Below, one piece after another: positions 7,464-45,873 of a DNA stretch of 64,000 bases. Both the position numbers and the translations under genes were made by a program. How positions within the stretch are numbered: position 1 is the first letter of the stretch; each line of letters begins with the position of its first letter. The notes below the pieces were generated by a model, which was given only the letters and a program-made list of their open reading frames with translations, did no database searches and was not told the DNA's origin. Source of the DNA: a virus. Location: the IMG/VR virus record IMGVR_UViG_2617270923_000003, positions 1 through 64,000 of that record; one strand, given 5' to 3'.

Positions 7464-8909
7464 TTATGCAGCCGCCTGCACCTCGGCGTTGACGCGCTGC
7501 ATGGTCGAAGCGACAAAGCCAACGAGCGACTTGTGGGCGCGATCGGTAATCTGCTCCCAGGACTGGGTCGTGATGAAATCGCCGTTGCGGAAGACGACCT
7601 GGAGCTGGTTGTCGATGCCCTCGGGCAGCGCGTCCTCGCGGATGGTTTCGAATTCGCCGTCATTCATGACCACGGCGACACGACCAGCCTTGGAAGACTT
7701 CGAGGGATCCGTCGCGGGCTTCTTCTGCACGTCCTGCCAGCCATTTCCGAAGTCGATGGCATTAGCCTTCATGGCGAAGCGCTGATCGTCGCGCTTGTGG
7801 GACTGCAAGAGCCCACCACCCATGCCAAAGGCGATATTGTCGATGGAGAAGCCTTCCATCAGCATCCGGGCAACCAGGGCAGCAACAGACTGCGGCGTCA
7901 TGCCGTCGCCCTGGATGACGCGCACATGCTTGTCGAGAACCTTGAACCCCTTCGAGTTCGTGGTCCCGCCGAAGATATCCCAAAGCTTCTTGATGACCGC
8001 AACGGGCGTTTCGACCGGATCGCCGGAGTCAGGACGGATAACGAGCGTGCCGTCGATATTGAGGATCTTCTCCTTGAGCTCGTCGCCGAAGATGTTCTCG
8101 ACCGCGTTGAACAGGTCGTAACTGTCGGAGACGACCGAGAACAGACCGTGACCGAAGTTGTCGATCATATTGGAGTAGGCATCCGCTTCGCGGTCCTGAC
8201 CCCAGCTCGTCATGGTCGAATGCTCCGACGCCGGAATGGAGAAGCCGGGCATCTCCTGAGCATCGTAGTAGTGCATCGCGCCCTGAATGGCTTCGAGGGT
8301 GTCGGTGCCCTTGAAATTGACCAGGTGAGCCATACCGCCCAGCATCGCGGATTCGCCAGACGAGACTCCACGGGCGCCGAAGTCATGCAGCTTGAACGGG
8401 ATCTGACCATCCGGATCGTCGGATGAGCGCTTCAGGCCGTCATAGATGATCGCCTTGGTGATGAAGGAGATCGTCGCGACAGAGGTCGGATACCAGATGG
8501 CGCGCAACAGCGCGGTTTCGACGAAGCTCGTAAGCCACGGAACCTTCGGGTCGGTGTTCTTGACCTGGATCATCGGCGTGCCGCGCGGAACGAACGAACC
8601 TTCCGGCAGAGCCTGAATCTCAATCGGCAGGTAGCCGTCATGATGTTCAAGGATATAGCGCCAGCCTTCCTCGTTGAACGGCAGGCCGTGCTTAAGGCAA
8701 AGCTCCTTGGCTTCCACGATGTCCGCTGCCTGAATCGGCATCGTCAGGTATTCCGACAGAAACGCCTGCAAACCGAAGAAGACGGAGAACTGCGGGCGAT
8801 CCGACTGCTTGCGCGCCTCGATGTAGGAGGAGATGAACTGCGCGCCGGGCGGATACTGGTTGAAATGGGACTGCTTATAGCTGTCCGTGGACAGGATGAT
8901 GTTCCTCAC
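7464..8909 (-). CDS. nadV: nicotinamide phosphoribosyltransferase (NAMPT/NadV)
   Basis: 481 aa; matches NAMPT along its whole length (STDSYK...HDFGARG...GTDT...SIPA.EHST...IRPDSGDP...QGDG). Confidence 0.85.
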   Translation of the reverse strand: MRNIILSTDSYKQSHFNQYPPGAQFISSYIEARKQSDRPQFSVFFGLQAFLSEYLTMPIQAADIVEAKELCLKHGLPFNEEGWRYILEHHDGYLPIEIQALPEGSFVPRGTPMIQVKNTDPKVPWLTSFVETALLRAIWYPTSVATISFITKAIIYDGLKRSSDDPDGQIPFKLHDFGARGVSSGESAMLGGMAHLVNFKGTDTLEAIQGAMHYYDAQEMPGFSIPASEHSTMTSWGQDREADAYSNMIDNFGHGLFSVVSDSYDLFNAVENIFGDELKEKILNIDGTLVIRPDSGDPVETPVAVIKKLWDIFGGTTNSKGFKVLDKHVRVIQGDGMTPQSVAALVARMLMEGFSIDNIAFGMGGGLLQSHKRDDQRFAMKANAIDFGNGWQDVQKKPATDPSKSSKAGRVAVVMNDGEFETIREDALPEGIDNQLQVVFRNGDFITTQSWEQITDRAHKSLVGFVASTMQRVNAEVQAAA

Positions 8910-9949
8910 AGGTAGTCTCCCTTGAGCAAGTTGGTGATGATGGAATGATGGTCTTCGTAGAACTCAGCGGTCGTGAGCGACGCGAAGTCATACCAATCGG
9001 CATGAGCCGCATCGTCACCCGCCTTGACGGCCGGGAGTTCCACGTCGGCGGGAATGGCGAACACGAAGGCCATCGACACGATGCGACCGCGGAGAGAGCG
9101 GTTCGGGTTGTCACACAGCCACTCGCCGGCGCAGTGTTCCTCAAGTGTCTCGCGATCGAGCCCGGTCTCTTCCATCGCTTCGCGTAGCGCGGCATCGAAG
9201 AAGCGTTCGCCCTTCTCGACGAACCCGCCCGGCATAGCCTTCTGACCACGACCGGCAGCCTTGCCGCGCGTGACGAGAAGGATCTTGCCGCGATGAAAGA
9301 CGAGAGCATCGGCAGCCAGGAACGGACCGTCGCCGTAGGTCTCCTTGTCCTTGGCGAGACCGTCTTTCCAGGCGACCAGATCCTTGAAGCGCGGCGTAAG
9401 AGCAAACTCCTTGAGCCAGGTGACGACCTGCGGCGAGCAAGCGTCATGCGGCAGGCGCGGGAGCCGGCGAAGGTAATCGTCGCGGATATCGGACGCGTTG
9501 AGCGTGCCGTGCTGAATGTCGATCTGAATATTGTCCCACTGGGGAAACATATTCAGATAGTAAGACGAGGCATCCTTGCCGAAGCCGGCGAGCGCGACCT
9601 TGAAGTCGTTTAACCCATGCAGGCGAATGCCACCCTTGTTGGCGTGATTGAGGATCGCATTCTCGACGCCACGGCGCAGGTTCTTCTCCCAATCGTAGTC
9701 GTGCTCGTAATCGTAGAGCGGGACCAGGATCAGACGGCCGGTTTCCAGCTCGTGATGGAAAACCCGTGTAAACATCGCTTCGCGATCAGCGAAGGTGAAA
9801 GGGTTCTTGGGCGTGGGCGCCATGTGGCTCGAACCAACAACGACGATCAGGGTTTCAACACGCTCAAGCGCGCCGCGAATGACGGCCTCGTGGCCCAGAT
9901 GAAGAGGCTGGAAACGGCCGATGAAGACGCCGTAGTGAAAGTCGCGCAT
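8906..9949 (-). CDS. natV: bifunctional NMN adenylyltransferase / Nudix ADP-ribose pyrophosphatase (NatV-like)
   Basis: N-terminal nucleotidyltransferase motif (GRFQPLHLGH) and a C-terminal Nudix box (GG.VE.GE....A.REA.EETG). ATGA-coupled to nadV. Confidence 0.8.
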   Translation of the reverse strand: MRDFHYGVFIGRFQPLHLGHEAVIRGALERVETLIVVVGSSHMAPTPKNPFTFADREAMFTRVFHHELETGRLILVPLYDYEHDYDWEKNLRRGVENAILNHANKGGIRLHGLNDFKVALAGFGKDASSYYLNMFPQWDNIQIDIQHGTLNASDIRDDYLRRLPRLPHDACSPQVVTWLKEFALTPRFKDLVAWKDGLAKDKETYGDGPFLAADALVFHRGKILLVTRGKAAGRGQKAMPGGFVEKGERFFDAALREAMEETGLDRETLEEHCAGEWLCDNPNRSLRGRIVSMAFVFAIPADVELPAVKAGDDAAHADWYDFASLTTAEFYEDHHSIITNLLKGDYL

Positions 9950-10731: not shown

Positions 10732-12186
10732 TTACGCAGCCTCTGCGGGCTGCGTATCCTTCTTGGGCTTCTTGCCCTTGTGCCACTTCATTTCGCCGGC
10801 CATGATCGAGCCACGCGGAAGAATCCGGTCGGCAATCTTGGCGAGTTCGAACTTTTCAATCTGAGCTTGCACCTGGCTTGCGTTCTTGTAGGCGCTCGGC
10901 AGTTCGGATACGTCCGGATCACCGGTGTAGAAGCGGACATCAAGGCCGGCCGTTTCACGATCCATGATCGCCTTGATCGCATTCGGGCCCAGACCGCGCG
11001 TGTCGCCGAACTCTTCCATGAGGCGCTTGATATGCGCCGTGCGGGAGAGATTGCGCCCGGCACCATGCGGTGCGAACCCGAGAGCGTTCTCGTTGTTCTT
11101 GTGCTCGGCGATCAGGATGGGCTGTGCCATATTCATCGGGATCAGCGTCAGACCCTGGTCATCCTTTGAGAAGCCCTTGAAGGACGGCGTTGCGCCCTTG
11201 GCGTGGTAGAACAGCCCGTCGGAGCGCTGAAAGACAAAATTGTGCTCGTTCCAGAACTGCCCGATGATCTGATTACCGAGCCGCTTGGCGACCAGGTTGT
11301 GAATGGCGAAGTGGTTCATCTTCGTCCAAAGGCGCAGCGCCTGAAGAGCCTGCCAGTAATCCTGGCCCACCTGGCTATCCGCCTCGATCCAGGCATTGTG
11401 CAACGGGATCCTCGGGGCGACGATCCGCGTATGGCGCTCGGCTGCAGCCTTGCCCCGCTTGTAGAGCTGACCGCCCAGCCCACGAGAGCCATGATGAGTA
11501 ACGATCGCCATCTGACCGGTCGATTCCAGCTCGCCCACGTAGAAGAAGTGATTGCCGTCACCCTGGGTCATGAAGTGGTGGATGGCGTAATCCTCCAGCC
11601 CTTTCAAGAACGGGTTGGCTTCGAAACCGTTGACCAGGCTCACAAGATCCTTGTGCTGACGAACCTCAGACGCCGTGCGCTTGCCGACGCCGAAGTGGGT
11701 CGCCTTCATGGCGATATCAAGCACATAATCGACCGGCGTGTCGCGCTTGAAGACGGAGATCGCCATCGAGCAGCAGATGTCGGCCGAGTGGAAGCCCGGA
11801 TGGATCGCGTTCTTGGTCGCAACCACGCCACCAACAGGAATCGTGCCTATCGCAGAGCCTGACGGGCAAGCGTCAGGCATGACTGCGCCGCGCTCGATAG
11901 TCGGAACGCGCATTAGCGCATCCATGTGGGCGAGGACGCCGGCGACGTTCGCCTTCTCGTCGTCACCTTCCGGCTCGATGAACTGGCCGAACGGAATGTT
12001 GTTGGTTCGCAGCGGCACACCTTCCTCGACAGCCTTGGCTGCCTGGAGCGGAAACAGCGCCTGAATGATCTCCTTGTCGGTCTTGCCGTCCTCGCGGAGC
12101 TGGCGAGCCAACGGCAGCGCTTCCTTGAACCATGCGCCAGGCTGTAAGCCCCACGCGACGAGCGTCTTGCCCGAGATATTACTCAT
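10732..12186 (-). CDS. rtcB: RtcB-family RNA 3'-phosphate ligase
   Basis: 484 aa with the conserved RtcB motifs (QGDGNHF, THHGSRGLG, FAPHGAGR, His/Cys metal ligands). Confidence 0.85.
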   Translation of the reverse strand: MSNISGKTLVAWGLQPGAWFKEALPLARQLREDGKTDKEIIQALFPLQAAKAVEEGVPLRTNNIPFGQFIEPEGDDEKANVAGVLAHMDALMRVPTIERGAVMPDACPSGSAIGTIPVGGVVATKNAIHPGFHSADICCSMAISVFKRDTPVDYVLDIAMKATHFGVGKRTASEVRQHKDLVSLVNGFEANPFLKGLEDYAIHHFMTQGDGNHFFYVGELESTGQMAIVTHHGSRGLGGQLYKRGKAAAERHTRIVAPRIPLHNAWIEADSQVGQDYWQALQALRLWTKMNHFAIHNLVAKRLGNQIIGQFWNEHNFVFQRSDGLFYHAKGATPSFKGFSKDDQGLTLIPMNMAQPILIAEHKNNENALGFAPHGAGRNLSRTAHIKRLMEEFGDTRGLGPNAIKAIMDRETAGLDVRFYTGDPDVSELPSAYKNASQVQAQIEKFELAKIADRILPRGSIMAGEMKWHKGKKPKKDTQPAEAA

Positions 12187-17253: not shown

Positions 17254-18822
17254 TCAGCCGTTCGGCTTCAAGCCACGAGCGTCGAACAGCTTCTTGAGGG
17301 TCTTGCGGCAAATATGCAGCTCAGCCTCGATCTGACGGTTCGACTTGCCTTCGGCGTGCAGCACCAGGGCGAGGGTATGCTTTTCGGGCAGTTCCTTCTC
17401 GGCCTTGGCCTTTTCGACGACCTTCTTCGACTTCTCGACCTTCTCAGGCGTCGGCTTGGCAGTTCCCTTGCCGATCTTTGACTCAGGGGAGCTCACAGGC
17501 TCGCTCGGAGCAGTCATTGCAGCGCTGATAGCGGCCGAGAGATCGCCGCTCGCAGCGGCCTTCTGAACGGCCTTGCTCGGCTTCTTCTGACGCGACAGTT
17601 CGACCTCATCCACGCGCTTGCGCAGATCGCGGATCGACACGTCGACCTTCTCCTCGATCACCTCGGGGCGATCATCGAGCGCCTTGGCAACGCCGGAGGT
17701 TCCGACATCGGCACGCGCCATCTTCTTCGCACCTTCGACCGGCGTGACGGTGACGTTTCCACCGTAGGCCGAGCCGATGTTGACGATCTCAAGGATCGAC
17801 GTGTGATTGCCCTTGATCACGTCCGCGAGCAGCTTGGATGCCTTCTCGTGTCCGGTCATCGGCTTGTTGCTGCGCAGCGTCGGGTGAACGTCAGCCGGCA
17901 GGACCGCGACGATGTGATAGCCCTTGGCGCGCATCTTGTTCGGCTCGCCGGGCGGCACAGCGATCACGTCTTCCGGCGCGACCTTGACCAGGGTGATGAT
18001 ATCGCCACTGAAGCCGGAGAGGTAGCCGCGCCGTGCGATATGCAAGCCCGTCGAGCATTCGTTGCGCCGGTTCGGGTCGACCAGCTTCTCGTCCATCTGC
18101 ACGAAGGAGCCGAGCTTCTGCGTCACCTTGCGCGAATGGCAATCGACGAAGCCGTTGGACGTGGACTGCAGCACCTTGTAGGCGACGATCGAGCCGTCAT
18201 CCGCGATCGGCAGGTCGCCCTTGCTCATGAAGTTGAGCAGCTCCTTGATAGTATGCGAGCGGCTGTCGATCACAGAGGCGATGCGCTCCATGAACTTCTG
18301 GAAGCCTGCGGCGTCCTCGCCGTGATTGATCGCATCCATGTAGGGCGTCAGCGCCTCGACACCAGGGATGACCTTGTTGTTGACGACGGCGTGCAGTTCT
18401 TCCGGCTCATATTCGACAGCCGGACCCTTGTCCTGCGGAACGTAGCGCGACGACACCGACGGCTTCGTCAGCTCCATGACCGGCGTGGGAGCCGGCGTCG
18501 GCTTGACGCTGCCCAGAACGACAGTCGTGGTCTTGGGCTCCGGCTCGCTCGGCGTGCCGCCCAGCAATGCCTTGAGCTGGGAGAAGCGGCCGCGCACGAA
18601 CCTCACGACGCCGTTGGTCTTCTCCTCGATAGTCTTCTCGATGGAGAAGGTCGCGAGGTCGATTTCCATGTGCTCGCCGCGCTTGAGAGCTTCGACCGTC
18701 TGATCGAGGATCTCCTTCGTGCGCTTGGTGTCCTTCTTGAGGTTTAGTTCCTCCCCGTTGTCGAGGAAGAGGGTAACGCCGGAATTAGATGCGATGGCGC
18801 TGAGGATCTTTACCTTGCTCAT
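17254..18822 (-). CDS. rIIB: rIIB-like protein with a C-terminal HTH-like segment
   Basis: Lies immediately downstream of the rIIA-like gene with an ATGA overlap. AAGGAGG RBS precedes the MSKVK start at 18822. Size and position match T4 rIIB. The C-terminus (LALVLHAEGKSNRQIEAELHICRKTLKK) resembles a LuxR/sigma-70 region-4 HTH. Confidence 0.55.
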   Translation of the reverse strand: MSKVKILSAIASNSGVTLFLDNGEELNLKKDTKRTKEILDQTVEALKRGEHMEIDLATFSIEKTIEEKTNGVVRFVRGRFSQLKALLGGTPSEPEPKTTTVVLGSVKPTPAPTPVMELTKPSVSSRYVPQDKGPAVEYEPEELHAVVNNKVIPGVEALTPYMDAINHGEDAAGFQKFMERIASVIDSRSHTIKELLNFMSKGDLPIADDGSIVAYKVLQSTSNGFVDCHSRKVTQKLGSFVQMDEKLVDPNRRNECSTGLHIARRGYLSGFSGDIITLVKVAPEDVIAVPPGEPNKMRAKGYHIVAVLPADVHPTLRSNKPMTGHEKASKLLADVIKGNHTSILEIVNIGSAYGGNVTVTPVEGAKKMARADVGTSGVAKALDDRPEVIEEKVDVSIRDLRKRVDEVELSRQKKPSKAVQKAAASGDLSAAISAAMTAPSEPVSSPESKIGKGTAKPTPEKVEKSKKVVEKAKAEKELPEKHTLALVLHAEGKSNRQIEAELHICRKTLKKLFDARGLKPNG

Positions 18823-21191
18823 GCTGCCTCCTTGAGGGCGGTGGTGTTGGTGTTGGCTGCGGACTTCTTGGCGGACTTCTGCTTGGCGCGGCGCTGCAGG
18901 AACTTGATCGTTTCGATCAGATCGTCGGTGAACTGATCGCCCCACTCGGACACCCGCTCATTGAGGAACCAGGCGCCGCAGATCGGATTGAGGTAGCGGA
19001 AGTGATCCTCGGCCTTGGAGATGCTCAGCGGCTTGAAGGTCTTGCCGCACGCCTTCTTGAGGCCGTCCTTAGCCTGGGTGACGATGGTCTTGGTCTCGTC
19101 CGACATGGACTCAGCGCTGGAGAGGAAGTCCCAGATCAGCTTTGCTTCCTGATGCAGCTCGCCGGGATTTGCCCGGTCGGGGAACAGGAGCTTGGCAATC
19201 CGGGGTTCCTTCTTAGCCAGCTTGAGCGCAGCCTCGACGGTCGAGGCGTGATAGGCGCTGCTACCATCGCGGATGAAACGGTCGTGCCGGATGGTCTCGC
19301 CGTAGACGACCTCGCGCTTCTTGGTGAGTTCGACCAGGCGGGCAGCCAAGACCTCGTGCAGGTTGCGGCAGCCGGCCTTCTTGAGCTTCTCCTCCTGGCC
19401 CTTCGTCGTGATGAGCGCGGTCTTCGGATAGAGCTTCATGATCTGGGCGCGGTATGCCTCGTTGAACGGCATCCGGGCGATCTCGTCGCGCTGCCAGGTC
19501 ATCATGTAGAAGGACGGATCCTCGCAGGACGCCGGATGGTCACGGTCGCGGCTCTTGTCGCTGATGTCTTCCAGGATGAAATACTTGTCGGCGCTGGTCT
19601 TGCGCACGGCAGGCTTGCGATTTGCCTTGGCCTCCTCGTAATCGAACAGCTCCAAGCTGATCTTGAAGTGGCCGCACAGTTCCTGCAGACGCTTGAGGTT
19701 CTTCTCGGTCCACTGGCGCATGACCATGCCGGGCACGTAGGTATTCTTGTCGTGGCCGTAGAACTCGCGACCCTTGAGCGCGAGCATCGGGCGCAAGTCG
19801 CGCATGTTGCGGGCAACGCACAGCACCGGATAGACGTGCCCCGAGCGTTCGTATTCGCCGATCCGCTTGGTCTTCGGTCCCGGATAGTCGTGGCGATGCC
19901 TGTAAATGTCGAACAGCATCAGCTCCTTGAGCAGGCCCATCTTCGACGCGATGCGCAGTGCCGCCGTAGAGGTGCGCTTGAAGTGCAGCTCCTTCGCATT
20001 GCCGAAGTTCTGCGGAGCGCGCCGGTAGAACCGGCGATCGTCGCGGAACATCTTCTGGGCGATCTTGTAGAGCTTGCGGCGCGTGTCGATGCCGATCCAA
20101 ACGTGGTGATGACCGTGCGTGGAGACCGCGTGGTCGGCGATCATATCGGGCGTCGACAGGATTCCTGCCGGGTAGTCGCTGCGCGGGCTGATATAGTCGT
20201 CCAACTGCAGACGGCTGCGGCTCTCAACGATCGAGGTGAGCAACCGCATGGTAGCGGGATCCAGCGCCCGCGTGATCGTCTTGATCGCCTTGTTGAGCAG
20301 GCGGTTCAACGTCTCGTCGGTGAGCGGCGAGAACGACAGCGCTTCACGCGACGGCGTGACGCCGATCGAGTTCGGAGGCGGGATCAGCACCAGGATCGAG
20401 TTCGTGCCACAAAGATTGATCGCCTCGACGGCGAGCCGGGTCATGGCGTCGTCAGTGTTGGTCAGCGGATACATGACCGTGCCGTAGAGGACGTAGACGC
20501 GGCCTTCGTTGAGCCCGATGTTCGGGATGACGCCGAACTCGTGCTTACGGGCCTCGGTGAAGTCGAAGCGCTCAAGCGGCACGCCGTTCAAGGTAGCAAG
20601 CATTCCGCCCTGCTTGACGACAGCGCGAATGTGGTTTTCGAACTCGTAGCGGTCCTTGGGCTGCTGGATCGGGATCGTGACCGTCAGACCGGTTTCGGTC
20701 GAAGCGGTGCGGAACATCTCGCGCATTTCCGGCTTGCCGTCGGTCGCGACACCACCACGGGAGATCGCATGGACGGTCTTGAGGCCGTCGTGCTGGTTGA
20801 CGATGGTGAAGTGGTCCGTCACGGCGAAAGGCGCCTTGGATCCGAGGCCGAAGCCGCCCGTCTGGTTCTCGTCCTTGACCTTGGTGGACTTGCCGTAGAT
20901 GCAATAGATCGGGTGCAGCAGCTCCAGCGGAATGCCAGGCCCGAAGTCGCGGATCTTGATCTCGGTTTCAGTGACCGTGATTTCGACCGGAACGTCGGTC
21001 TTGCCGACCATAATGTGTGCATCCCAGGCGTTGCAGATGGTCTCTCGCATCGCCGCGCGCTTCTTGTCGCGGTAAATCTTGTCGGAGAGGAGGGCATAGA
21101 GCTCAGCGGAGTCGTCCATGCCGAAGGCTTTGGCCTCGCCACCGCCGATGACGGCATGTGTGTCGAGTTCTGCGATCGTTGAAACCTGCAT
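18819..21191 (-). CDS. rIIA: rIIA-like protein (N-terminal GHKL/HATPase_c domain)
   Basis: 790 aa. N-terminal Bergerat ATPase motifs (E..NAWDA, DFGPGI, GGFGLGSKAPFAV), as in T4 rIIA. Confidence 0.7.
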   Translation of the reverse strand: MQVSTIAELDTHAVIGGGEAKAFGMDDSAELYALLSDKIYRDKKRAAMRETICNAWDAHIMVGKTDVPVEITVTETEIKIRDFGPGIPLELLHPIYCIYGKSTKVKDENQTGGFGLGSKAPFAVTDHFTIVNQHDGLKTVHAISRGGVATDGKPEMREMFRTASTETGLTVTIPIQQPKDRYEFENHIRAVVKQGGMLATLNGVPLERFDFTEARKHEFGVIPNIGLNEGRVYVLYGTVMYPLTNTDDAMTRLAVEAINLCGTNSILVLIPPPNSIGVTPSREALSFSPLTDETLNRLLNKAIKTITRALDPATMRLLTSIVESRSRLQLDDYISPRSDYPAGILSTPDMIADHAVSTHGHHHVWIGIDTRRKLYKIAQKMFRDDRRFYRRAPQNFGNAKELHFKRTSTAALRIASKMGLLKELMLFDIYRHRHDYPGPKTKRIGEYERSGHVYPVLCVARNMRDLRPMLALKGREFYGHDKNTYVPGMVMRQWTEKNLKRLQELCGHFKISLELFDYEEAKANRKPAVRKTSADKYFILEDISDKSRDRDHPASCEDPSFYMMTWQRDEIARMPFNEAYRAQIMKLYPKTALITTKGQEEKLKKAGCRNLHEVLAARLVELTKKREVVYGETIRHDRFIRDGSSAYHASTVEAALKLAKKEPRIAKLLFPDRANPGELHQEAKLIWDFLSSAESMSDETKTIVTQAKDGLKKACGKTFKPLSISKAEDHFRYLNPICGAWFLNERVSEWGDQFTDDLIETIKFLQRRAKQKSAKKSAANTNTTALKEAA

Positions 21192-21277: not shown

Positions 21278-21354
21278 TGGTTGGGGATTAGAGGAGTCGA
21301 ACCTCAACCTTGTCTGACTCGTCAGCCAGTTGCTCTGCCCTGAGCTAATCCCCA
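21278..21354 (-). tRNA. tRNA-like gene with a normal acceptor stem, D-arm and T-arm (GGTTCGACTCC) and encoded CCA, but an aberrant anticodon arm
   Basis: rc sequence TGGGGAT-TA-GCTC-AGGGCA-GAGC-A-ACTGGCTGACGAGTCAGAC-AAGG-TGAGG-TTCGACT-CCTCT-ATCCCCA-A-CCA. The anticodon region is the palindrome CTGAC-GA-GTCAG, so a 5-bp stem with a 7-nt loop cannot form. Confidence 0.4.
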
Positions 21355-21654: not shown

Positions 21655-21727
21655 TGGCCGGGAGGCAAGGAGTCGAACCTCGACCGCTGCCCTCCATAGG
21701 CAGTGCTCTGCCCTAAGCTACCTCCCG
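21655..21727 (-). tRNA. tRNA with anticodon UGG (Pro) and an unusual A33; encoded CCA
   Basis: rc sequence CGGGAGG-TA-GCTT-AGGGCA-GAGC-A-CTGCC-TATGGAG-GGCAG-CGGT-CGAGG-TTCGACT-CCTTG-CCTCCCG-G-CCA. Cloverleaf is clean; the anticodon loop is UAUGGAG. Confidence 0.55.
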
Positions 21728-21980
21728 GTATTTATGGTGGTGATGAGCTCCTATACCCCTCTGGCCGACTGCCAGTGATATCCGCGGTGTCAATCGCGGC
21801 CAGGGCTCCTAAGAGCTCATCACCGAAACGTTTCCCCGTTCATCCGGCCTATCAGATGGCTACTTTCGCAGCGTCCACGATCTACCCAGCGCTAGACTCA
21901 GGCGGTGGCGGGGCTTGCCTTGCGGAGCGGTGTTCAGACTCCACAAGTTCGGCGCACTTCGTTGCCCATTCGGGCGAAAC

Positions 21981-22068
21981 TGGAGATCCGGGTCGGATTC
22001 GAACCGACGAGTCCAAGAAAGGAACGGGATTTGCAGTCCCGCGCGTTCGACCACTTCGCTACCGGATC
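21981..22068 (-). tRNA. type-II (long variable arm) tRNA with anticodon GCA (Cys codons) and U73 discriminator; encoded CCA
   Basis: rc sequence GATCCGG-TA-GCG-AAGTGGTCGAA-CGC-G-CGGGA-CTGCAAA-TCCCG-TTCCTTTCTTGGACTC-GTCGG-TTCGAAT-CCGAC-CCGGATC-T-CCA. It has a 3-bp D-stem with an 11-nt D-loop and a 16-nt variable arm, as in Ser/Leu/Tyr tRNAs. The anticodon is that of Cys. Confidence 0.6.
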
Positions 22069-22298
22069 GGATGGGCTGGGACGCCAGCGACTAGGCACTG
22101 GTCTGGACCGCGGCTCCACCCTACTACCTGGGACGCTAACGCGCGCCAGGCCGTCCCAACTCGTTGAATTAACGTCCCTGGGAGTAGAAAGGACGAAACA
22201 CCTCCCAGGGACTCGCCGGGTCGCTACTCCGGTGAACAGGCGATAGGCGTGGGTTATGACGCCTCGTTTTAAGTCGCCGCTTGCGCGGCTTGATTAGC

Positions 22299-22367
22299 AT
22301 CGGGAGCGTGGAGTCGAACCACGACCGCGGATTTCAAGCCCGCCGCACTGCCCTGTGCTACTCCCGC
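22299..22367 (-). tRNA. short type-I tRNA with anticodon UGA (would read UCA Ser codons), G1-A72 mismatch, no encoded CCA
   Basis: rc sequence GCGGGAG-TA-GCAC-AGGGCA-GTGC-G-GCGGG-CTTGAAA-TCCGC-GGT-CGTGG-TTCGACT-CCACG-CTCCCGA-T. 69 nt with a 3-nt variable loop. Confidence 0.5.
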
Positions 22368-22528: not shown

Positions 22529-23002
22529 TTACAGGCCGAAGCGAACTTCGCGGCCGCGAGGAACGATACCGCCCTGGTGAAAACGACCACCGCGGCCGGC
22601 GATCGCAGCAGCGAGAACGGAAGCGATGCCGGCAGCAGCAGCGAAGGCGTTCTCACCACCGACGTTGTAAGCTTCGTGGCCGCGCTTCAGCAGCGCCTTG
22701 AGATCGTCGTGATCGAGGTCTTCGTCATCGGCGATCGCAGCGAGGTCTTCGCGAAGGCCCTTCAGGAGCTTCTTCTGCGCCTTCACGGCCTTGTAGCGCT
22801 TGTCGATGTCGGCCTGCATGTTCAGGACTTCGCCGATAAGATGGCGCTTTTCGGCGACACGCTCGGCTTCGACGCGTTCGGCTTCGATGCGCGCGGCTTC
22901 TGCGGCAGCTTCTTCGCGTTCCTGCTTGATCGAGTTGAGCGTCGGGTCGATCTTGACGACGGTTGCGACAGCGGTATCAGCGGCCTGATTTTCGTAGGTC
23001 AT
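22529..23002 (-). CDS. hypothetical coiled-coil protein (~157 aa from MTYENQ)
   Basis: ATG at 23002 with AAGGAAC RBS. Central Glu/Ala/Arg-rich coiled coil; Gly/Ala-rich C-terminus. Confidence 0.5.
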   Translation of the reverse strand: MTYENQAADTAVATVVKIDPTLNSIKQEREEAAAEAARIEAERVEAERVAEKRHLIGEVLNMQADIDKRYKAVKAQKKLLKGLREDLAAIADDEDLDHDDLKALLKRGHEAYNVGGENAFAAAAGIASVLAAAIAGRGGRFHQGGIVPRGREVRFGL

Positions 23003-23128
23003 GGGTAGTTCCTTTCGGTTGCGGATCAGATCAAATTCAGCGTCAAGCACCCGACAAAGATGATGGAGGCAGCGCAGACGAGGTGTGCGAAACTAATGCT
23101 CATCTGCGCTGTCTTTCGTTCGTTGTCA

Positions 23129-41878: not shown

Positions 41879-42511
41879 TTAGAAAGCGCCGAAAATCTCG
41901 TTCTGCTGGTAGTGCTGTTCGCGCACCTCAGCCTCGGCCAGTTCTTTTTCGAGCTTGCGCTTGTGGTTCTCCATCTGGAAAGCAAGCTCGCGCACGTGGC
42001 GCATCTTCTCTTCACGCTGGAGTTCCCTCTCGGCCGCGATATCTGCCGGCGAGACGGCGATGCCATGCGAGGCCAGCCCGAGCTTCTTCTGCCATTCATC
42101 GATCGCGGCCAGACGTTCGCTTTCCTGCATGTCGTTCCACTCCTCGATCTCAAACTGTTCGAGCACCTTGTCGCCGTCGTTCATGACGGACCGCAGCATC
42201 GGGTGCCTACCCTTCGGCTGCCACCAGTCCGGTGCGGGCTGGTAGTAATACTGCGTCGGCGTCAGGGGCATTCCGCGCCATGTCATGAACGTGCCTAAGA
42301 CCCTGGCGTTTTCGTTAGGCAACCTCATCTTGCCGTAGGTCATAGGAACGGGCGTGGGATCAGCCGTGGGCTTGCTCTCGACCGGCTCTTCGCCCACAGC
42401 GGACAACGACTCCAAGATCCGCTGAAGGAAGCCCTTCTTGGGCTTCTCCAACGCGGTCAGGCTTGCAACATAAGTCGGACGCATGATCTCAATCCCTCCG
42501 TTCCAAATCAT
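41879..42511 (-). CDS. hypothetical protein (210 aa) ending ...QQNEIFGAF; ATGA-coupled downstream of dnaE
   Basis: ORF with a Trp-rich central region and a C-terminal coiled-coil. Confidence 0.5.
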   Translation of the reverse strand: MIWNGGIEIMRPTYVASLTALEKPKKGFLQRILESLSAVGEEPVESKPTADPTPVPMTYGKMRLPNENARVLGTFMTWRGMPLTPTQYYYQPAPDWWQPKGRHPMLRSVMNDGDKVLEQFEIEEWNDMQESERLAAIDEWQKKLGLASHGIAVSPADIAAERELQREEKMRHVRELAFQMENHKRKLEKELAEAEVREQHYQQNEIFGAF

Positions 42512-45500
42512 GACAGGCAGTCCGCGACGGCTGCGAACACCTGATTCATGTTTTCCTGCTTGTCCGGGTCGTGATAGATTTCACCCGGAGAGAAGCCGAT
42601 GATGATGTTGGCGTCATACTTCTTGGAGTAGATGACCTTGCCGGCCTGCTCTGACGCCTTACCCTTGAAGTCCGGGAAGAAGTGACGCACGGTCGTCGAG
42701 CCGAGGAGCACGATGACGGGCGGCTGCAACAATTCGATCTCCCGCTCCAGGTAGGGCTCGTAGGTCTTGATCTCGTCGGGCGTGACCTGCTTGCCGCGCT
42801 TCGGACGCTTGATGAGCGCCGTCCAATAGGCGTTGTGTCTATCGAGGGACGCCGTTTCGATCGCTTCGACCACTGCGTTATTCGAGATCGAGAAGCCCAT
42901 GATCCCGCCCGTGTCCTCCTCGTTGCCGGGGGCATCGGAGATGATCATGAAGTCGGCGCTCTTGCCGAAGAACGGCTTGACCGGATATCCGTCTGCAGTC
43001 GTGGCCTTGGGCCCATGCGCTGCGCGGTATTCGTCCACGAGCTCGCCAAGGGCTGCCTTCGTGTCCTTATCCTTGTTCAAGTCGTGGTCGACCGGCACAT
43101 GCGCGGCGATCAGGCCCGGCAGGAGTTCGATCTGGTCCTTGATGCGGCTCGGGTCGTTAGCAGGCGCCTGACCAGACTCAATGCGAGAGAAAGCACCCAC
43201 CAGGTCGAGCGCCTCCTGGACCCGCTTGTTACAGACGCGCTTCTCCACCCGAGACAGGAAATCGTTCTTATCGACAAACGGGCCGGCCTTGCGGGCTGCG
43301 AGGATCGCGTTCGTTGCCTTCTCGCTCAGACCCTTGATGCGCTGGAGCGGCATGACGAGGCGGACAGACGTTGCCATCTCGAAGCGGTTGGTCGAGATAT
43401 TGATGTCAGGCATCGAGACCTCGATCCCGAGCGCCTTTGCATCCCGGATGATACCCGTCAGCTTCTCTTCCTTCTGCACGGTCAGGGCTGCGGCGTAGAA
43501 CTCGGCCGGATAGTAGGTCTTGAGATACATCGACTGATAGGAGATCAGCGTGTATTCGACCGAGTGCGACTTGTTGAAGCCGTAGCCGGCGAAGCCTTCG
43601 ATCTTGTCGAACAGAGCGCCTGCCCAATCCTCGGTGCAGCCGATCGTGGCGACACAGCCGTCGCAGAACTTCTTCCGCTCCTTCTTCATTTCCTCCGGCA
43701 GCTTCTTGCCCATGATCTTGCGGAGCTTGTCAGCAGCGGCGCCGGAGTAGCCGGCGATCACCTGGGAGATCTTCATGACCTGCTCCTGGTAGACGATGAC
43801 GCCGAAGGTTTCTTCGAGCACCGGCTCCATCAGCGGGTGATCATATTCGATCTCCTCATTGCCCTGCTTGCGCAGATAGAAGCTATCCATCATCCCGGAC
43901 TCGATCGGGCCAGGACGATAGAGCGCGGTGCAAGCCGTGATATCTTCGAAGGTGATGACGCCAGTCGAGCCGAGCTCCTTCAAGAGCCGGCGCATACCTC
44001 CGGACTCGAACTGGAAGATGGCAGTCGTGTTCGCCTTGGCGAAGTTCGCCAGCACCTTCTCGTCATCGAGAGGAATGCGGTTCAAGTCGATGCGCTTGCC
44101 CGTGTTCTCGCGGATATATTCGAGCGCCAGGGTCATATGGTCGAGCGTGTTCAGGCCGAGCACGTCCATCTTGACCAGGCCCTGGTCCTCGACGATGCGC
44201 TTGTCCCAGCACACGACGTTGCCTTCCTTGCGCCGTTCCACGACCGCGCGATCCACAATGTCTACACCGGCGACAATGACACCGCCTGCGTGCTGACCGA
44301 AGTTGCGGATCGTTCCTTCCAGGCGCTCCATCATCGGATAGTGCGTCGGATAGTTGTTGGCGAAGTCGTCGATCTCCTTGACCTGCTTGCGAGCCTCGGG
44401 GAGGGGAACGTTCTGCCCGTGCAGCTTCGGCACGAACTTGGAGACGGAGAAGTCCTTTTCGGGGATGAGCGTCACGCGGCCGACATCGCGGATCGCGGAT
44501 GCGGAGCCGAGCGTGCCATAGTTATTGACGCCTGCGACACGCGCTGCGCCATACTTCTTGGTCAGATATTCGAAGACCTCGTGCCGGCGCTCGGACATAA
44601 AATCGAGGTCGGCGTCGGGCAAGTCGATACGTTCGGGATTGATGAAGCGTTCGAACAGGAGCCCGAAGCGGATCGGGTCGCACTCGGTAATGCCCATCAG
44701 ATACGCGACGAGGGATCCGCCCACGGAACCACGACCAGGGCCAACCATGATGCCGGACTTCTTGGCAAACTGCACCACGTCCTGCACGAGCAGGAAGTAA
44801 CCCGAGAAATTGAGGCGCTTGAGGGTTTCGAGTTCATAGGCGAGGCGAGGCTTATAAACCTCGACCAGCTCCTTTGCGCCCGGCTGATGACCGAAGATCG
44901 GCGCGTCGAAGCGCTCCTTCCAGCCCTTCTTGCACTCCTCGACCACGGCGGCGAACTCGTTCGGCGCCATAACCGGCAGTGACACGTCTGCCTTCTTCCA
45001 TTCATATTCGACCAGGTCGACTAGCTCAGCCGTATTGAGCAGCCCCTGCTTGAAGCAATCAGCGACATACGAAGCAGCCATGCCGCGCTTGACCAGGTGG
45101 GCTACCGCCTTCTTCATTTCGCCGACGAGCTCGCCCGAGCCCATGATGTGCATATCGCGGTTGAAACGCGACTTGAACCAGCCATCGGTGATCTTGTTGT
45201 TGTCGGAGATCGCCGTCATAATTTCCTGGGTGTCGGCTTCGCCCTGGCCGTAGAAGGCCGGACGCACGACGATCGGCTTGATGTTCTGCCGGGCGAACTC
45301 GCCAAGCGCGATCTGATTAAGCCGACCGTAATAGGGCGTGCTAACCGGGATCAGCGGCGCATACAGATGCGTCACGCGGGTTTCCAGCTCATCCACGATC
45401 TTCGTGTATTCGGGGTGCTCCAGGATGCTGTGAGCGTCACCGAGGACGATAGCGAGGTCATCCGGCGCGATCTTCGCCAGCTCCTTGTAAAGATCCTCGA

Positions 45501-45873
45501 AGCCGAGCTTGGCCTCGTAGTAGAAGCGGTCGTCCGAGTTGGCGAGCGTCAAGAGACGGAAGATCGCCTTCATGCCAACTTCCTTGAGCGCGTAGACGGT
45601 CAGGAAGTAGGAGCGCGGCATATCCTTCTTTTTCTCACCATCGCCCGGACGCCAGGTCGGATCATCGGACAGGCGCAGCCGGCAACCAATCACAGGCTTC
45701 AGACCCTCGGCCTTGGCCTTATTCGTAAAGTCGATCATGCCAGTAATCGACATGGTGTCGGTCATCGCGACGGCCTTGGCTCCGGCGTCGACGGCGTTCT
45801 TAATCAGACGCTTGGTTGTGAGGATGCTTTCGCCGACTGAGAAATCAGTCCGCGCTGCAAGGATCGAGTGCAT
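42508..45873 (-). CDS. dnaE: DNA polymerase III alpha subunit (DnaE-type C-family polymerase with N-terminal PHP domain)
   Basis: 1121 aa, full-length similarity to bacterial DnaE: PHP His/Asp motifs, palm catalytic Asp region (GPGRGS), fingers, and OB-fold. Confidence 0.9.
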   Translation of the reverse strand: MHSILAARTDFSVGESILTTKRLIKNAVDAGAKAVAMTDTMSITGMIDFTNKAKAEGLKPVIGCRLRLSDDPTWRPGDGEKKKDMPRSYFLTVYALKEVGMKAIFRLLTLANSDDRFYYEAKLGFEDLYKELAKIAPDDLAIVLGDAHSILEHPEYTKIVDELETRVTHLYAPLIPVSTPYYGRLNQIALGEFARQNIKPIVVRPAFYGQGEADTQEIMTAISDNNKITDGWFKSRFNRDMHIMGSGELVGEMKKAVAHLVKRGMAASYVADCFKQGLLNTAELVDLVEYEWKKADVSLPVMAPNEFAAVVEECKKGWKERFDAPIFGHQPGAKELVEVYKPRLAYELETLKRLNFSGYFLLVQDVVQFAKKSGIMVGPGRGSVGGSLVAYLMGITECDPIRFGLLFERFINPERIDLPDADLDFMSERRHEVFEYLTKKYGAARVAGVNNYGTLGSASAIRDVGRVTLIPEKDFSVSKFVPKLHGQNVPLPEARKQVKEIDDFANNYPTHYPMMERLEGTIRNFGQHAGGVIVAGVDIVDRAVVERRKEGNVVCWDKRIVEDQGLVKMDVLGLNTLDHMTLALEYIRENTGKRIDLNRIPLDDEKVLANFAKANTTAIFQFESGGMRRLLKELGSTGVITFEDITACTALYRPGPIESGMMDSFYLRKQGNEEIEYDHPLMEPVLEETFGVIVYQEQVMKISQVIAGYSGAAADKLRKIMGKKLPEEMKKERKKFCDGCVATIGCTEDWAGALFDKIEGFAGYGFNKSHSVEYTLISYQSMYLKTYYPAEFYAAALTVQKEEKLTGIIRDAKALGIEVSMPDINISTNRFEMATSVRLVMPLQRIKGLSEKATNAILAARKAGPFVDKNDFLSRVEKRVCNKRVQEALDLVGAFSRIESGQAPANDPSRIKDQIELLPGLIAAHVPVDHDLNKDKDTKAALGELVDEYRAAHGPKATTADGYPVKPFFGKSADFMIISDAPGNEEDTGGIMGFSISNNAVVEAIETASLDRHNAYWTALIKRPKRGKQVTPDEIKTYEPYLEREIELLQPPVIVLLGSTTVRHFFPDFKGKASEQAGKVIYSKKYDANIIIGFSPGEIYHDPDKQENMNQVFAAVADCLS

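Follow-up and report, generated by a model that had tools for sequence, protein, structure and literature searches.

To our knowledge, textbooks and recent reviews give a long variable arm only to tRNAs for Leu, Ser and Sec and to bacterial tRNA-Tyr; the Sec-like selC* tRNA-Cys counts as an odd case. The selC* form is the only long-armed tRNA-Cys that has been described; it occurs in anaerobes, linked to selB* and cysS*, and has an 8/4 arrangement, an A51a bulge, and longer anticodon and D stems (PMC5389517). With U73 and the anticodon GCA, it is experimentally charged by CysRS (Mukai et al. 2017, PMC5389517). The same work treats allo-tRNAs with U73, which have a 12-bp acceptor branch in an 8/4 or 9/3 arrangement, as Ser acceptors (PMC5389517). 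It is established that SerRS does not recognise the anticodon (Giegé & Eriani 2023, PMC9976931). Nematode nev-tRNAs combine a class II body with the anticodon of a class I amino acid (Gly or Ile, and not Leu or Ser), and are charged with Leu (PMC3333845). The literature searched, among it reviews of non-canonical tRNAs (2020) and of tRNA identity (2023), contains no 7/5 class II tRNA-Cys in phages or Planctomycetota and no mention of a long-armed chromosomal tRNA-Cys in Phycisphaerae or Planctomycetota, although its coverage is incomplete and an earlier description is possible.

Here we examined a 64,000-nucleotide stretch of viral DNA (IMG/VR record IMGVR_UViG_2617270923_000003, positions 1 to 64,000), which is called the window. 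ARAGORN finds a tRNA-Cys(gca) gene on its minus strand (Table 1), a strand that the first-pass annotation of this locus had left unstated. As judged from sequence comparison, the product is probably a genuine acceptor of Cys with a class II format, charged by the CysRS of the host. Rfam model RF00005 matches it with 61.3 bits (E=7.8e-11, 21984-22068, threshold 29), the top score of the four tRNA matches in the window (33-51 bits for the others), and RF00005, not tRNA-Sec, is the best member of the clan.

The class II body was recognised in the first-pass annotation, and its parts are confirmed from the sequence: a 3-bp D stem, an 11-nt D loop with GG, and a 16-nt variable arm. The anticodon loop CUGCAAA with GCA and the discriminator U73 are likewise confirmed, and ARAGORN calls Cys-GCA. 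GCA and U73 are the two main Cys identity elements, and their presence on a long-armed body is, as that annotation held, a non-textbook arrangement for bacteria. The mismatch A13·A22 leaves the 3-bp D stem and the loop AAGUGGUCGAA, which reads A14 G15 U16 G18 G19 U20 C20a G20b A21 between the mismatched bases, with 3 nt before GG and 4 after. Class II tRNAs have a variable stem-loop of more than 10 nt, a 3-bp D stem and extra D-loop nucleotides after G18G19, all of which are present here, whereas the variable region of class I tRNAs is 4-5 nt rather than 16 nt with a hairpin. In the minimum free energy fold, the helices of the acceptor, anticodon, variable and T arms are recovered, and the D region is paired otherwise.

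A plus-strand reading with the anticodon UGC (Ala) was rejected because the T loop, the CCA, the gene orientation and the 61-bit Rfam match are all on the minus strand. On the plus strand, Rfam gave only sub-threshold matches to plastid UTR families. A GTG-started ORF of 154 aa runs antisense across the tRNA-Cys and Pro-like genes, and is almost certainly a spurious product of GC-rich DNA.

Table 1 Coordinates of the tRNA-Cys gene and its parts, of other features of the window, and of related loci
Feature	Position	Strand	Remarks
tRNA-Cys(GCA) gene with long variable arm (class II)	21981..22068	-	85 nt + encoded CCA; ARAGORN, RF00005, covariation, B1VFA annotation
Acceptor stem		-	7 bp GAUCCGG/CCGGAUC, then U8 A9; read from sequence
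D arm	22043..22059	-	G10-C25, C11-G24, G12-C23, A13·A22 mismatch
Anticodon G34 C35 A36	22032..22034	-	loop CUGCAAA; U33, A37, A38 present
Anticodon stem		-	5 bp CGGGA/UCCCG; read from sequence
Variable arm	22009..22024	-	16 nt UUCCUUUCUUGGACUC; UCC/GGA stem, 6-nt loop, unpaired CUC 3'
T arm	21992..22008	-	GUCGG-UUCGAAU-CCGAC; 5-bp stem
Discriminator U73	21984	-	read from sequence
Genomic 3' CCA	21981..21983	-	sequence; invariant in all 5 family members
Motif GUUUCGCCCGAAUGGGCA	21963-21979	-	small GCCC-GAAU-GGGC hairpin
'Ser-UGA'	22299-22367	-	69 nt, no long arm, G1·A72 mismatch, U73, no CCA, Gly-like GCGGGAG acceptor
'Pro-UGG'	21655-21727	-	A33 instead of U33, G73, CCA
Third tRNA-like gene	21278-21354	-	CUGA-CGAG-UCAG tetraloop hairpin replaces anticodon arm; possible 8-9-bp acceptor stem before CCA
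Homologues of the tRNA-like genes	L012 1846-1918; L001 3298-3367; L007 3135-3208		odd loops CCCAGAA, CCCUGAA, UUUCAGAG
94-nt structured RNA	21736-21829	-	15-bp closing stem, three-way junction, two hairpins
Long conserved hairpin	22174-22212	-	GUCCCUGGGAGG-UGUUUCGUCCUUUCUA-CUCCCAGGGAC
154-aa ORF	21703-22167	+	GTG start
rIIA	18819-21191		
173-aa ORF	22529-23050		
NAMPT-family phosphoribosyltransferase	7464-8909	-	
Cytidylyltransferase-like (NMNAT-type)/Nudix fusion	8906-9949	-	
RtcB RNA ligase	10732-12186	-	
DNA polymerase III alpha homologue	42508-45873	-	PHP, NTPase, finger, HhH domains; uracil-DNA-glycosylase superfamily domain at C-terminus (residues 969-1104)
Phycisphaerae/Planctomycetota long-armed tRNA-Cys, examples	L159 6198-6280; L187 98-183; L155 4111-4191, 4327-4407		28 more genome loci
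Loci with both short- and long-armed forms	L027, L033, L056, L064, L093, L094, L095, L116, L121, L137, L176		adjacent in L137 (6937-7021 and 7038-7109)
Long-armed class I isotypes	L013 233-318 (+); L043, L045, L047, L067, L085, L086, others		L013 is Thr-UGU

Homologous long-armed tRNAs with GCA, U73 and CCA were found in Rhizobium phage B1VFA, where GenBank annotates tRNA-Cys, and in three IMG/VR contigs of 116-121 kb. In the alignment of these four with the window tRNA, 99.1% of the cells are paired. Six pairs are altered on both sides (three in the acceptor stem, one in the anticodon stem and two in the T stem). The observed values were reached in 0 of 500 shuffles, no slid register comes near them either, and covariation was noted in up to four of the five helices. 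The anticodon loop YUGCAAA, U73 and CCA are invariant in all five members. Their variable arms follow YCC-loop-GGR with the loops UUUCUU, GGAA, GUAA and GAAA; those of the homologues read YCC-GNRA-GGG followed by CGYC, leaving four unpaired 3' nucleotides versus three in the window tRNA. The alignment thus indicates that the family is under structural selection. Because anticodon, discriminator and CCA are fixed while the stems co-vary, the selection would be on decoding and identity, beyond shape.

The window is a segment of a Rhizobium phage of about 116-122 kb, whose kin RHEph10, RHph_N1_10, RHph_X66 and B1VFA are 115-122 kb long and encode rIIA/rIIB, RtcB and Pol III alpha. Four ARAGORN tRNA genes lie on the minus strand between rIIA and a 173-aa ORF, the tRNA-Cys being in an accessory non-coding island of ~1.3 kb upstream of rIIA. 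The island is present in the window, RHph_X66, B1VFA and the loci L012 and L007, and absent from RHph_N1_10, RHEph10, V1VFA-S, L003 and L005. RHph_X66 and L007 have an ordinary short-armed tRNA-Cys of 76 nt in the same island with the same flanking genes, and RtcB of RHph_X66 is 93.5% identical to that of the window. Thus, short and long forms replace each other among close kin. In this phage clade, tRNA-Cys is the sole canonical tRNA. Cys codons make up 1.1% of the codons in the window (TGC 9.0 and TGT 1.95 per 1000) with the usual UGC bias; such unremarkable use presents no obvious codon-supply need, and an explanation of the gene by codon supply is unsupported.

The other three 'tRNAs' of the island are non-canonical paralogues built on one scaffold, with the D arm GUAGCNYAGGGCAGAGC and the T arm GGUUCGACUCC, and have homologues with odd loops in three loci. 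They may act as decoys or as signals for processing, or be genes in decay. The island also holds a 94-nt structured RNA that is 83% identical in L012 and B1VFA. Its junction strands UAGGAGCCCUGG… GGAUAUCACUGGC… GCCAGAGGGGUAUA are invariant, and five of its pairs are altered on both sides in the three sequences. It has no Rfam match at E up to 5, and a pattern of its exact core retrieved only L012 from IMG/VR. A long hairpin is conserved in RHph_X66 and B1VFA as GUCUCUGGAAGG-AGUUUCGUUCCUUUCG-CCUUCCAGAGAC, with compensating changes in the stem and the loop sequence kept. The motif GUUUCGCCCGAAUGGGCA stands directly 3' of the tRNA-Cys CCA in the window; in RHph_X66 it immediately precedes the 5' end of the short-armed tRNA-Cys, and L007 has two copies. 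The modules of the island are ordered differently among relatives, as if they were shuffled. Across 1.45 kb of the island, Rfam at E up to 5 gave nothing past the four tRNA matches, and a promoter and terminator scan gave no σ70-like promoter and only terminator-like matches at chance level.

Elsewhere in the window, a NAMPT-family phosphoribosyltransferase and a fusion of cytidylyltransferase-like (NMNAT-type) and Nudix domains form a NAD-salvage pair, within 5 kb of which lies the RNA-repair ligase RtcB. These genes are in keeping with a phage countering defences directed at RNA and NAD. A specific association of RtcB with the tRNA was rejected, as RtcB is conserved throughout the clade, in relatives with and without the tRNA. 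The window also encodes a DNA polymerase III alpha homologue that ends in a uracil-DNA-glycosylase superfamily domain.

Related loci were collected as matches to an anticodon-loop/T-loop pattern demanding a long variable region, and all ARAGORN tRNAs in the ~120 viral and ~120 genome contigs collected served for comparison. The surveys were conditioned on the T loop GGTTCGAATCC, and all counts are among the matches listed. When both arm lengths were accepted in a viral scan, 8 of 83 distinct GCA sequences with this T loop were long-armed (~10% among the matches listed), an approximation that assumes the earlier set of loci to be re-matched. Among the 92 long-armed GCA tRNAs listed as matches, at least 31 are chromosomal, in species-representative genomes whose titles give Phycisphaerae, Phycisphaerales, Phycisphaeraceae or Planctomycetota (in one case no more than 'uncultured bacterium'), two of which are complete chromosomes of 3.1-3.3 Mb. 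The tRNA of Phycisphaerae is stand-alone and conserved (GGCCGYG…CGGAUUGCAAAUCCG…, 81-88 nt, U73, G1:C72), and the variable arm in these genomes has a 4-bp stem and a GNRA loop. Judged from the matched loci, the long-armed form looks like the housekeeping tRNA-Cys of Phycisphaerae.

Both short- and long-armed tRNAs with GCA and U73 are found in 11 of the 100 loci that contain a GCA tRNA, which hints that their roles are not always redundant. The two forms are sometimes adjacent, as in L137. Long arms are also seen on other isotypes in phage tRNA clusters, namely Thr-UGU (with U73), Asn, Asp, Lys, Val, Pro, Ile-UAU, Met, Trp and Arg. Each of the long-armed class I isotypes retains the discriminator and loop features of its own isotype. 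The Thr-UGU tRNA of L013 matches the window tRNA-Cys exactly in the D arm and almost exactly in the T arm.

Which amino acid the window tRNA would carry can be judged from its identity elements. It has the Cys elements U73, G34 C35 A36 and G1:C72, and the A13·A22 mismatch that closes a 3-bp D stem. On the other hand, it has G15:C48 in place of the Cys pair G15:G48. That determinant is restricted to E. coli and H. influenzae (PMC9976931), so the departure is not disqualifying. Among the matches listed, which come from contigs of phages and of genomes, 91 of the 92 long-armed GCA tRNAs keep U73. The other long-armed tRNAs in the collected loci have A73 for Tyr (29/29) and Leu (41/41), and for Ser G73 (49/58) or U73 (9/58). 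A Leu tRNA is recognised by A73, A15:U48 (40/41) and a D loop with 4 nt before GG and 3 after; the window tRNA has U73, G15:C48 and the 3/4 layout common to long-armed Cys tRNAs. Tyr requires A73 and U35, in place of which U73 and C35 are found. The variable stem is 3 bp long in the window tRNA, 3-4 bp in long-armed Cys tRNAs, 3 bp in Tyr and 5-7 bp in Ser. The nucleotides left unpaired 3' of this stem number three (CUC) in the window tRNA, mostly three in long-armed Cys, ~3 in Tyr and one in Ser.

When anticodon and discriminator were hidden, profile scoring of the window tRNA gave 35.8 bits for Tyr and 26.6 bits each for Ser and short-armed Cys. Since the masked body scores best against Tyr, it is not Cys-like by sequence. 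Tyr was also the best for the family of the window tRNA, whereas among the long-armed Cys tRNAs as a whole the Ser profile was the best in 61 of 82 cases. Because this outcome is ambiguous, the masked scores were used for class II likeness only, not for identity.

The first-pass annotation had raised the possibility that Ser or another residue is inserted at Cys codons. SerRS would then read the long arm, and Ser, alone or beside Cys, would enter at UGC and UGU. The class II body is in keeping with this, as are the Ser-type D loop (A14 G15 N16 G18 G19 and four more nucleotides), the pair C11:G24 and the masked Ser profile that fits most long-armed Cys tRNAs best. However, C11:G24 is common in Cys and Tyr tRNAs too, and is therefore not discriminating. 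Nor can U73 alone exclude SerRS, an enzyme that ignores the anticodon (PMC9976931), because U73 occurs in genuine phage tRNA-Ser and in allo-tRNAs; the earlier statement that SerRS needs G73 was too strong in view of the 9 of 58 sampled phage tRNA-Ser with U73. Several observations speak against Ser. Beside lacking G73, the window tRNA has A2:U71 and U3:A70, where the sampled phage Ser tRNAs have G2:C71 (55/58) and A3:U70 (49/58), and its short variable stem with three unpaired 3' nucleotides is Tyr-like rather than Ser-like. Both Ser acceptor pairs occur together in just 2 of 82 long-armed Cys tRNAs, a rarity that looks like avoidance. SerRS would not maintain so strict a U73 among the matches listed, proteome-wide replacement of Cys by Ser is implausible for Phycisphaerae with a chromosomal copy, and a short-armed tRNA-Cys stands in the same place in sister phages. 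Mischarging or dual identity is thus very unlikely, and recoding as first proposed is not supported by these observations.

The long arm could have a purpose of another kind, and the first-pass annotation had named the bypass of a host defence aimed at tRNA-Cys. A Cys-charged phage copy may resist a nuclease that cleaves host tRNA-Cys or offset the depletion of the host tRNA, the long arm and altered D loop making it a poor nuclease substrate. Such a replacement would explain the arm and is compatible with charging by CysRS. It would suit a tRNA that is the only canonical one of its clade and sits in an accessory island, a phage that invests in RNA repair and counter-defence (RtcB, NAMPT and NMNAT/Nudix), and the long-armed versions of many other isotypes in phage tRNA clusters as well as of about one in ten tRNA-Cys sampled from phages, among the matches listed. 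However, a nuclease directed at tRNA-Cys is neither known nor found for Rhizobium, RtcB is core to the clade regardless of the tRNA and has no specific association with it, the short-armed form suffices in sister phages, and the chromosomal gene in Phycisphaerae needs no phage-specific rationale. We regard this countering of defence as possible but unsupported, and unlikely. More broadly, conversion of Cys, Thr, Asn, Asp, Lys, Val, Pro and Ile tRNAs to the long-armed form with identity kept could be a recurrent adaptive escape of phages from host enzymes that act on the class I tRNAs of the host by cleavage, depletion or some other recognition, and some cases might create a controlled dual Cys/Ser identity. 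This generalisation is doubtful; if true, the window tRNA would be one case of an undescribed layer of phage-host tRNA conflict. Least probable is a tRNA-like element outside translation, which would signal processing by RNase P/RNase Z or act as a decoy in a structured-RNA array. The island offers a setting for it, as it contains two or more conserved structured RNAs beside the three non-canonical tRNA-like genes, in a shuffled module order. But the window tRNA, unlike its island neighbours, has U33 in a perfect anticodon loop of 7 nt, its stems vary by compensation around an invariant anticodon, U73 and CCA, and its Rfam score of 61 bits is the highest of the cluster.

Charging with Cys by the host CysRS is therefore the reading we prefer. 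The tRNA would be transcribed on the minus strand together with its neighbour genes, and released by host RNase P and 3' processing with the CCA pre-encoded. CysRS would add Cys through U73 and the GCA anticodon, aided by G1:C72 and the A13·A22 core, tolerating the long arm as seen experimentally with selC* tRNA-Cys. EF-Tu would then deliver the 7/5 molecule, which would decode UGC and UGU in phage mRNAs. Entry of the tRNA into the Ser, Tyr and Leu systems would be barred by the absence of the corresponding determinants in its discriminator, acceptor and core. Since the long-armed design recurs in many phages and in one bacterial class, it most likely delivers Cys without rewriting the code.

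These tRNAs indicate that an ordinary 7/5 tRNA-Cys can be class II. They raise the question of how a long-armed tRNA acceptable to CysRS is rejected by SerRS, TyrRS and LeuRS, and, being natural sequences, could be used as scaffolds that are orthogonal or open to engineering. In annotation, the window gene should be named tRNA-Cys, and it is no evidence of recoding.

Compared with class I tRNA-Cys, such as E. coli cysT and the 76-nt form of RHph_X66, the window tRNA shares the YUGCAAA loop with GCA, U73, G1:C72, the 7/5 arrangement and U8 A9, and with cysT also the 3-bp D stem and A13·A22. It differs from them in having a 16-nt hairpin arm rather than 4-5 nt and a D loop 2 nt longer, and from E. 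coli tRNA-Cys in G15:C48 versus G15:G48. With bacterial tRNA-Tyr(GUA) it shares the 3-bp variable stem, about three unpaired 3' nucleotides and the 3/4 D loop, and the anticodon is one base off. However, A73 and U35, the main TyrRS determinants, are absent, so Tyr charging is not expected. With tRNA-Ser and allo-tRNAs, some of which carry U73, it shares the class II body, C11:G24 and the D-loop layout, whereas G2:C71, A3:U70 and G73 of tRNA-Ser are lacking, the variable stem is shorter and more 3' nucleotides are unpaired. An allo-tRNA-like molecule had been suggested, but the arrangement is 7/5, not 8/4, 9/3 or 8/5, and the window tRNA is therefore not an allo-tRNA, selC* or tRNA-Sec, nor like an allo-tRNA or selC. 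An eighth acceptor pair, as in allo-tRNAs, would be U8·C65 and is impossible. The selC*/tRNA-Sec fold (8/4 or 8/5) has a long D stem with a tetraloop and a 6-bp anticodon stem, in place of which the D stem is 3 bp and the anticodon stem 5 bp. The selC* tRNA-Cys shares U73 and GCA. In contrast to it, the window tRNA has the plain 7/5 cloverleaf form, its D arm is of the Ser/Tyr type, and neither selB* nor cysS* is its neighbour. Unlike in the nev-tRNAs, discriminator and acceptor stem match the Cys anticodon, so that no mismatch between charging and decoding is expected.
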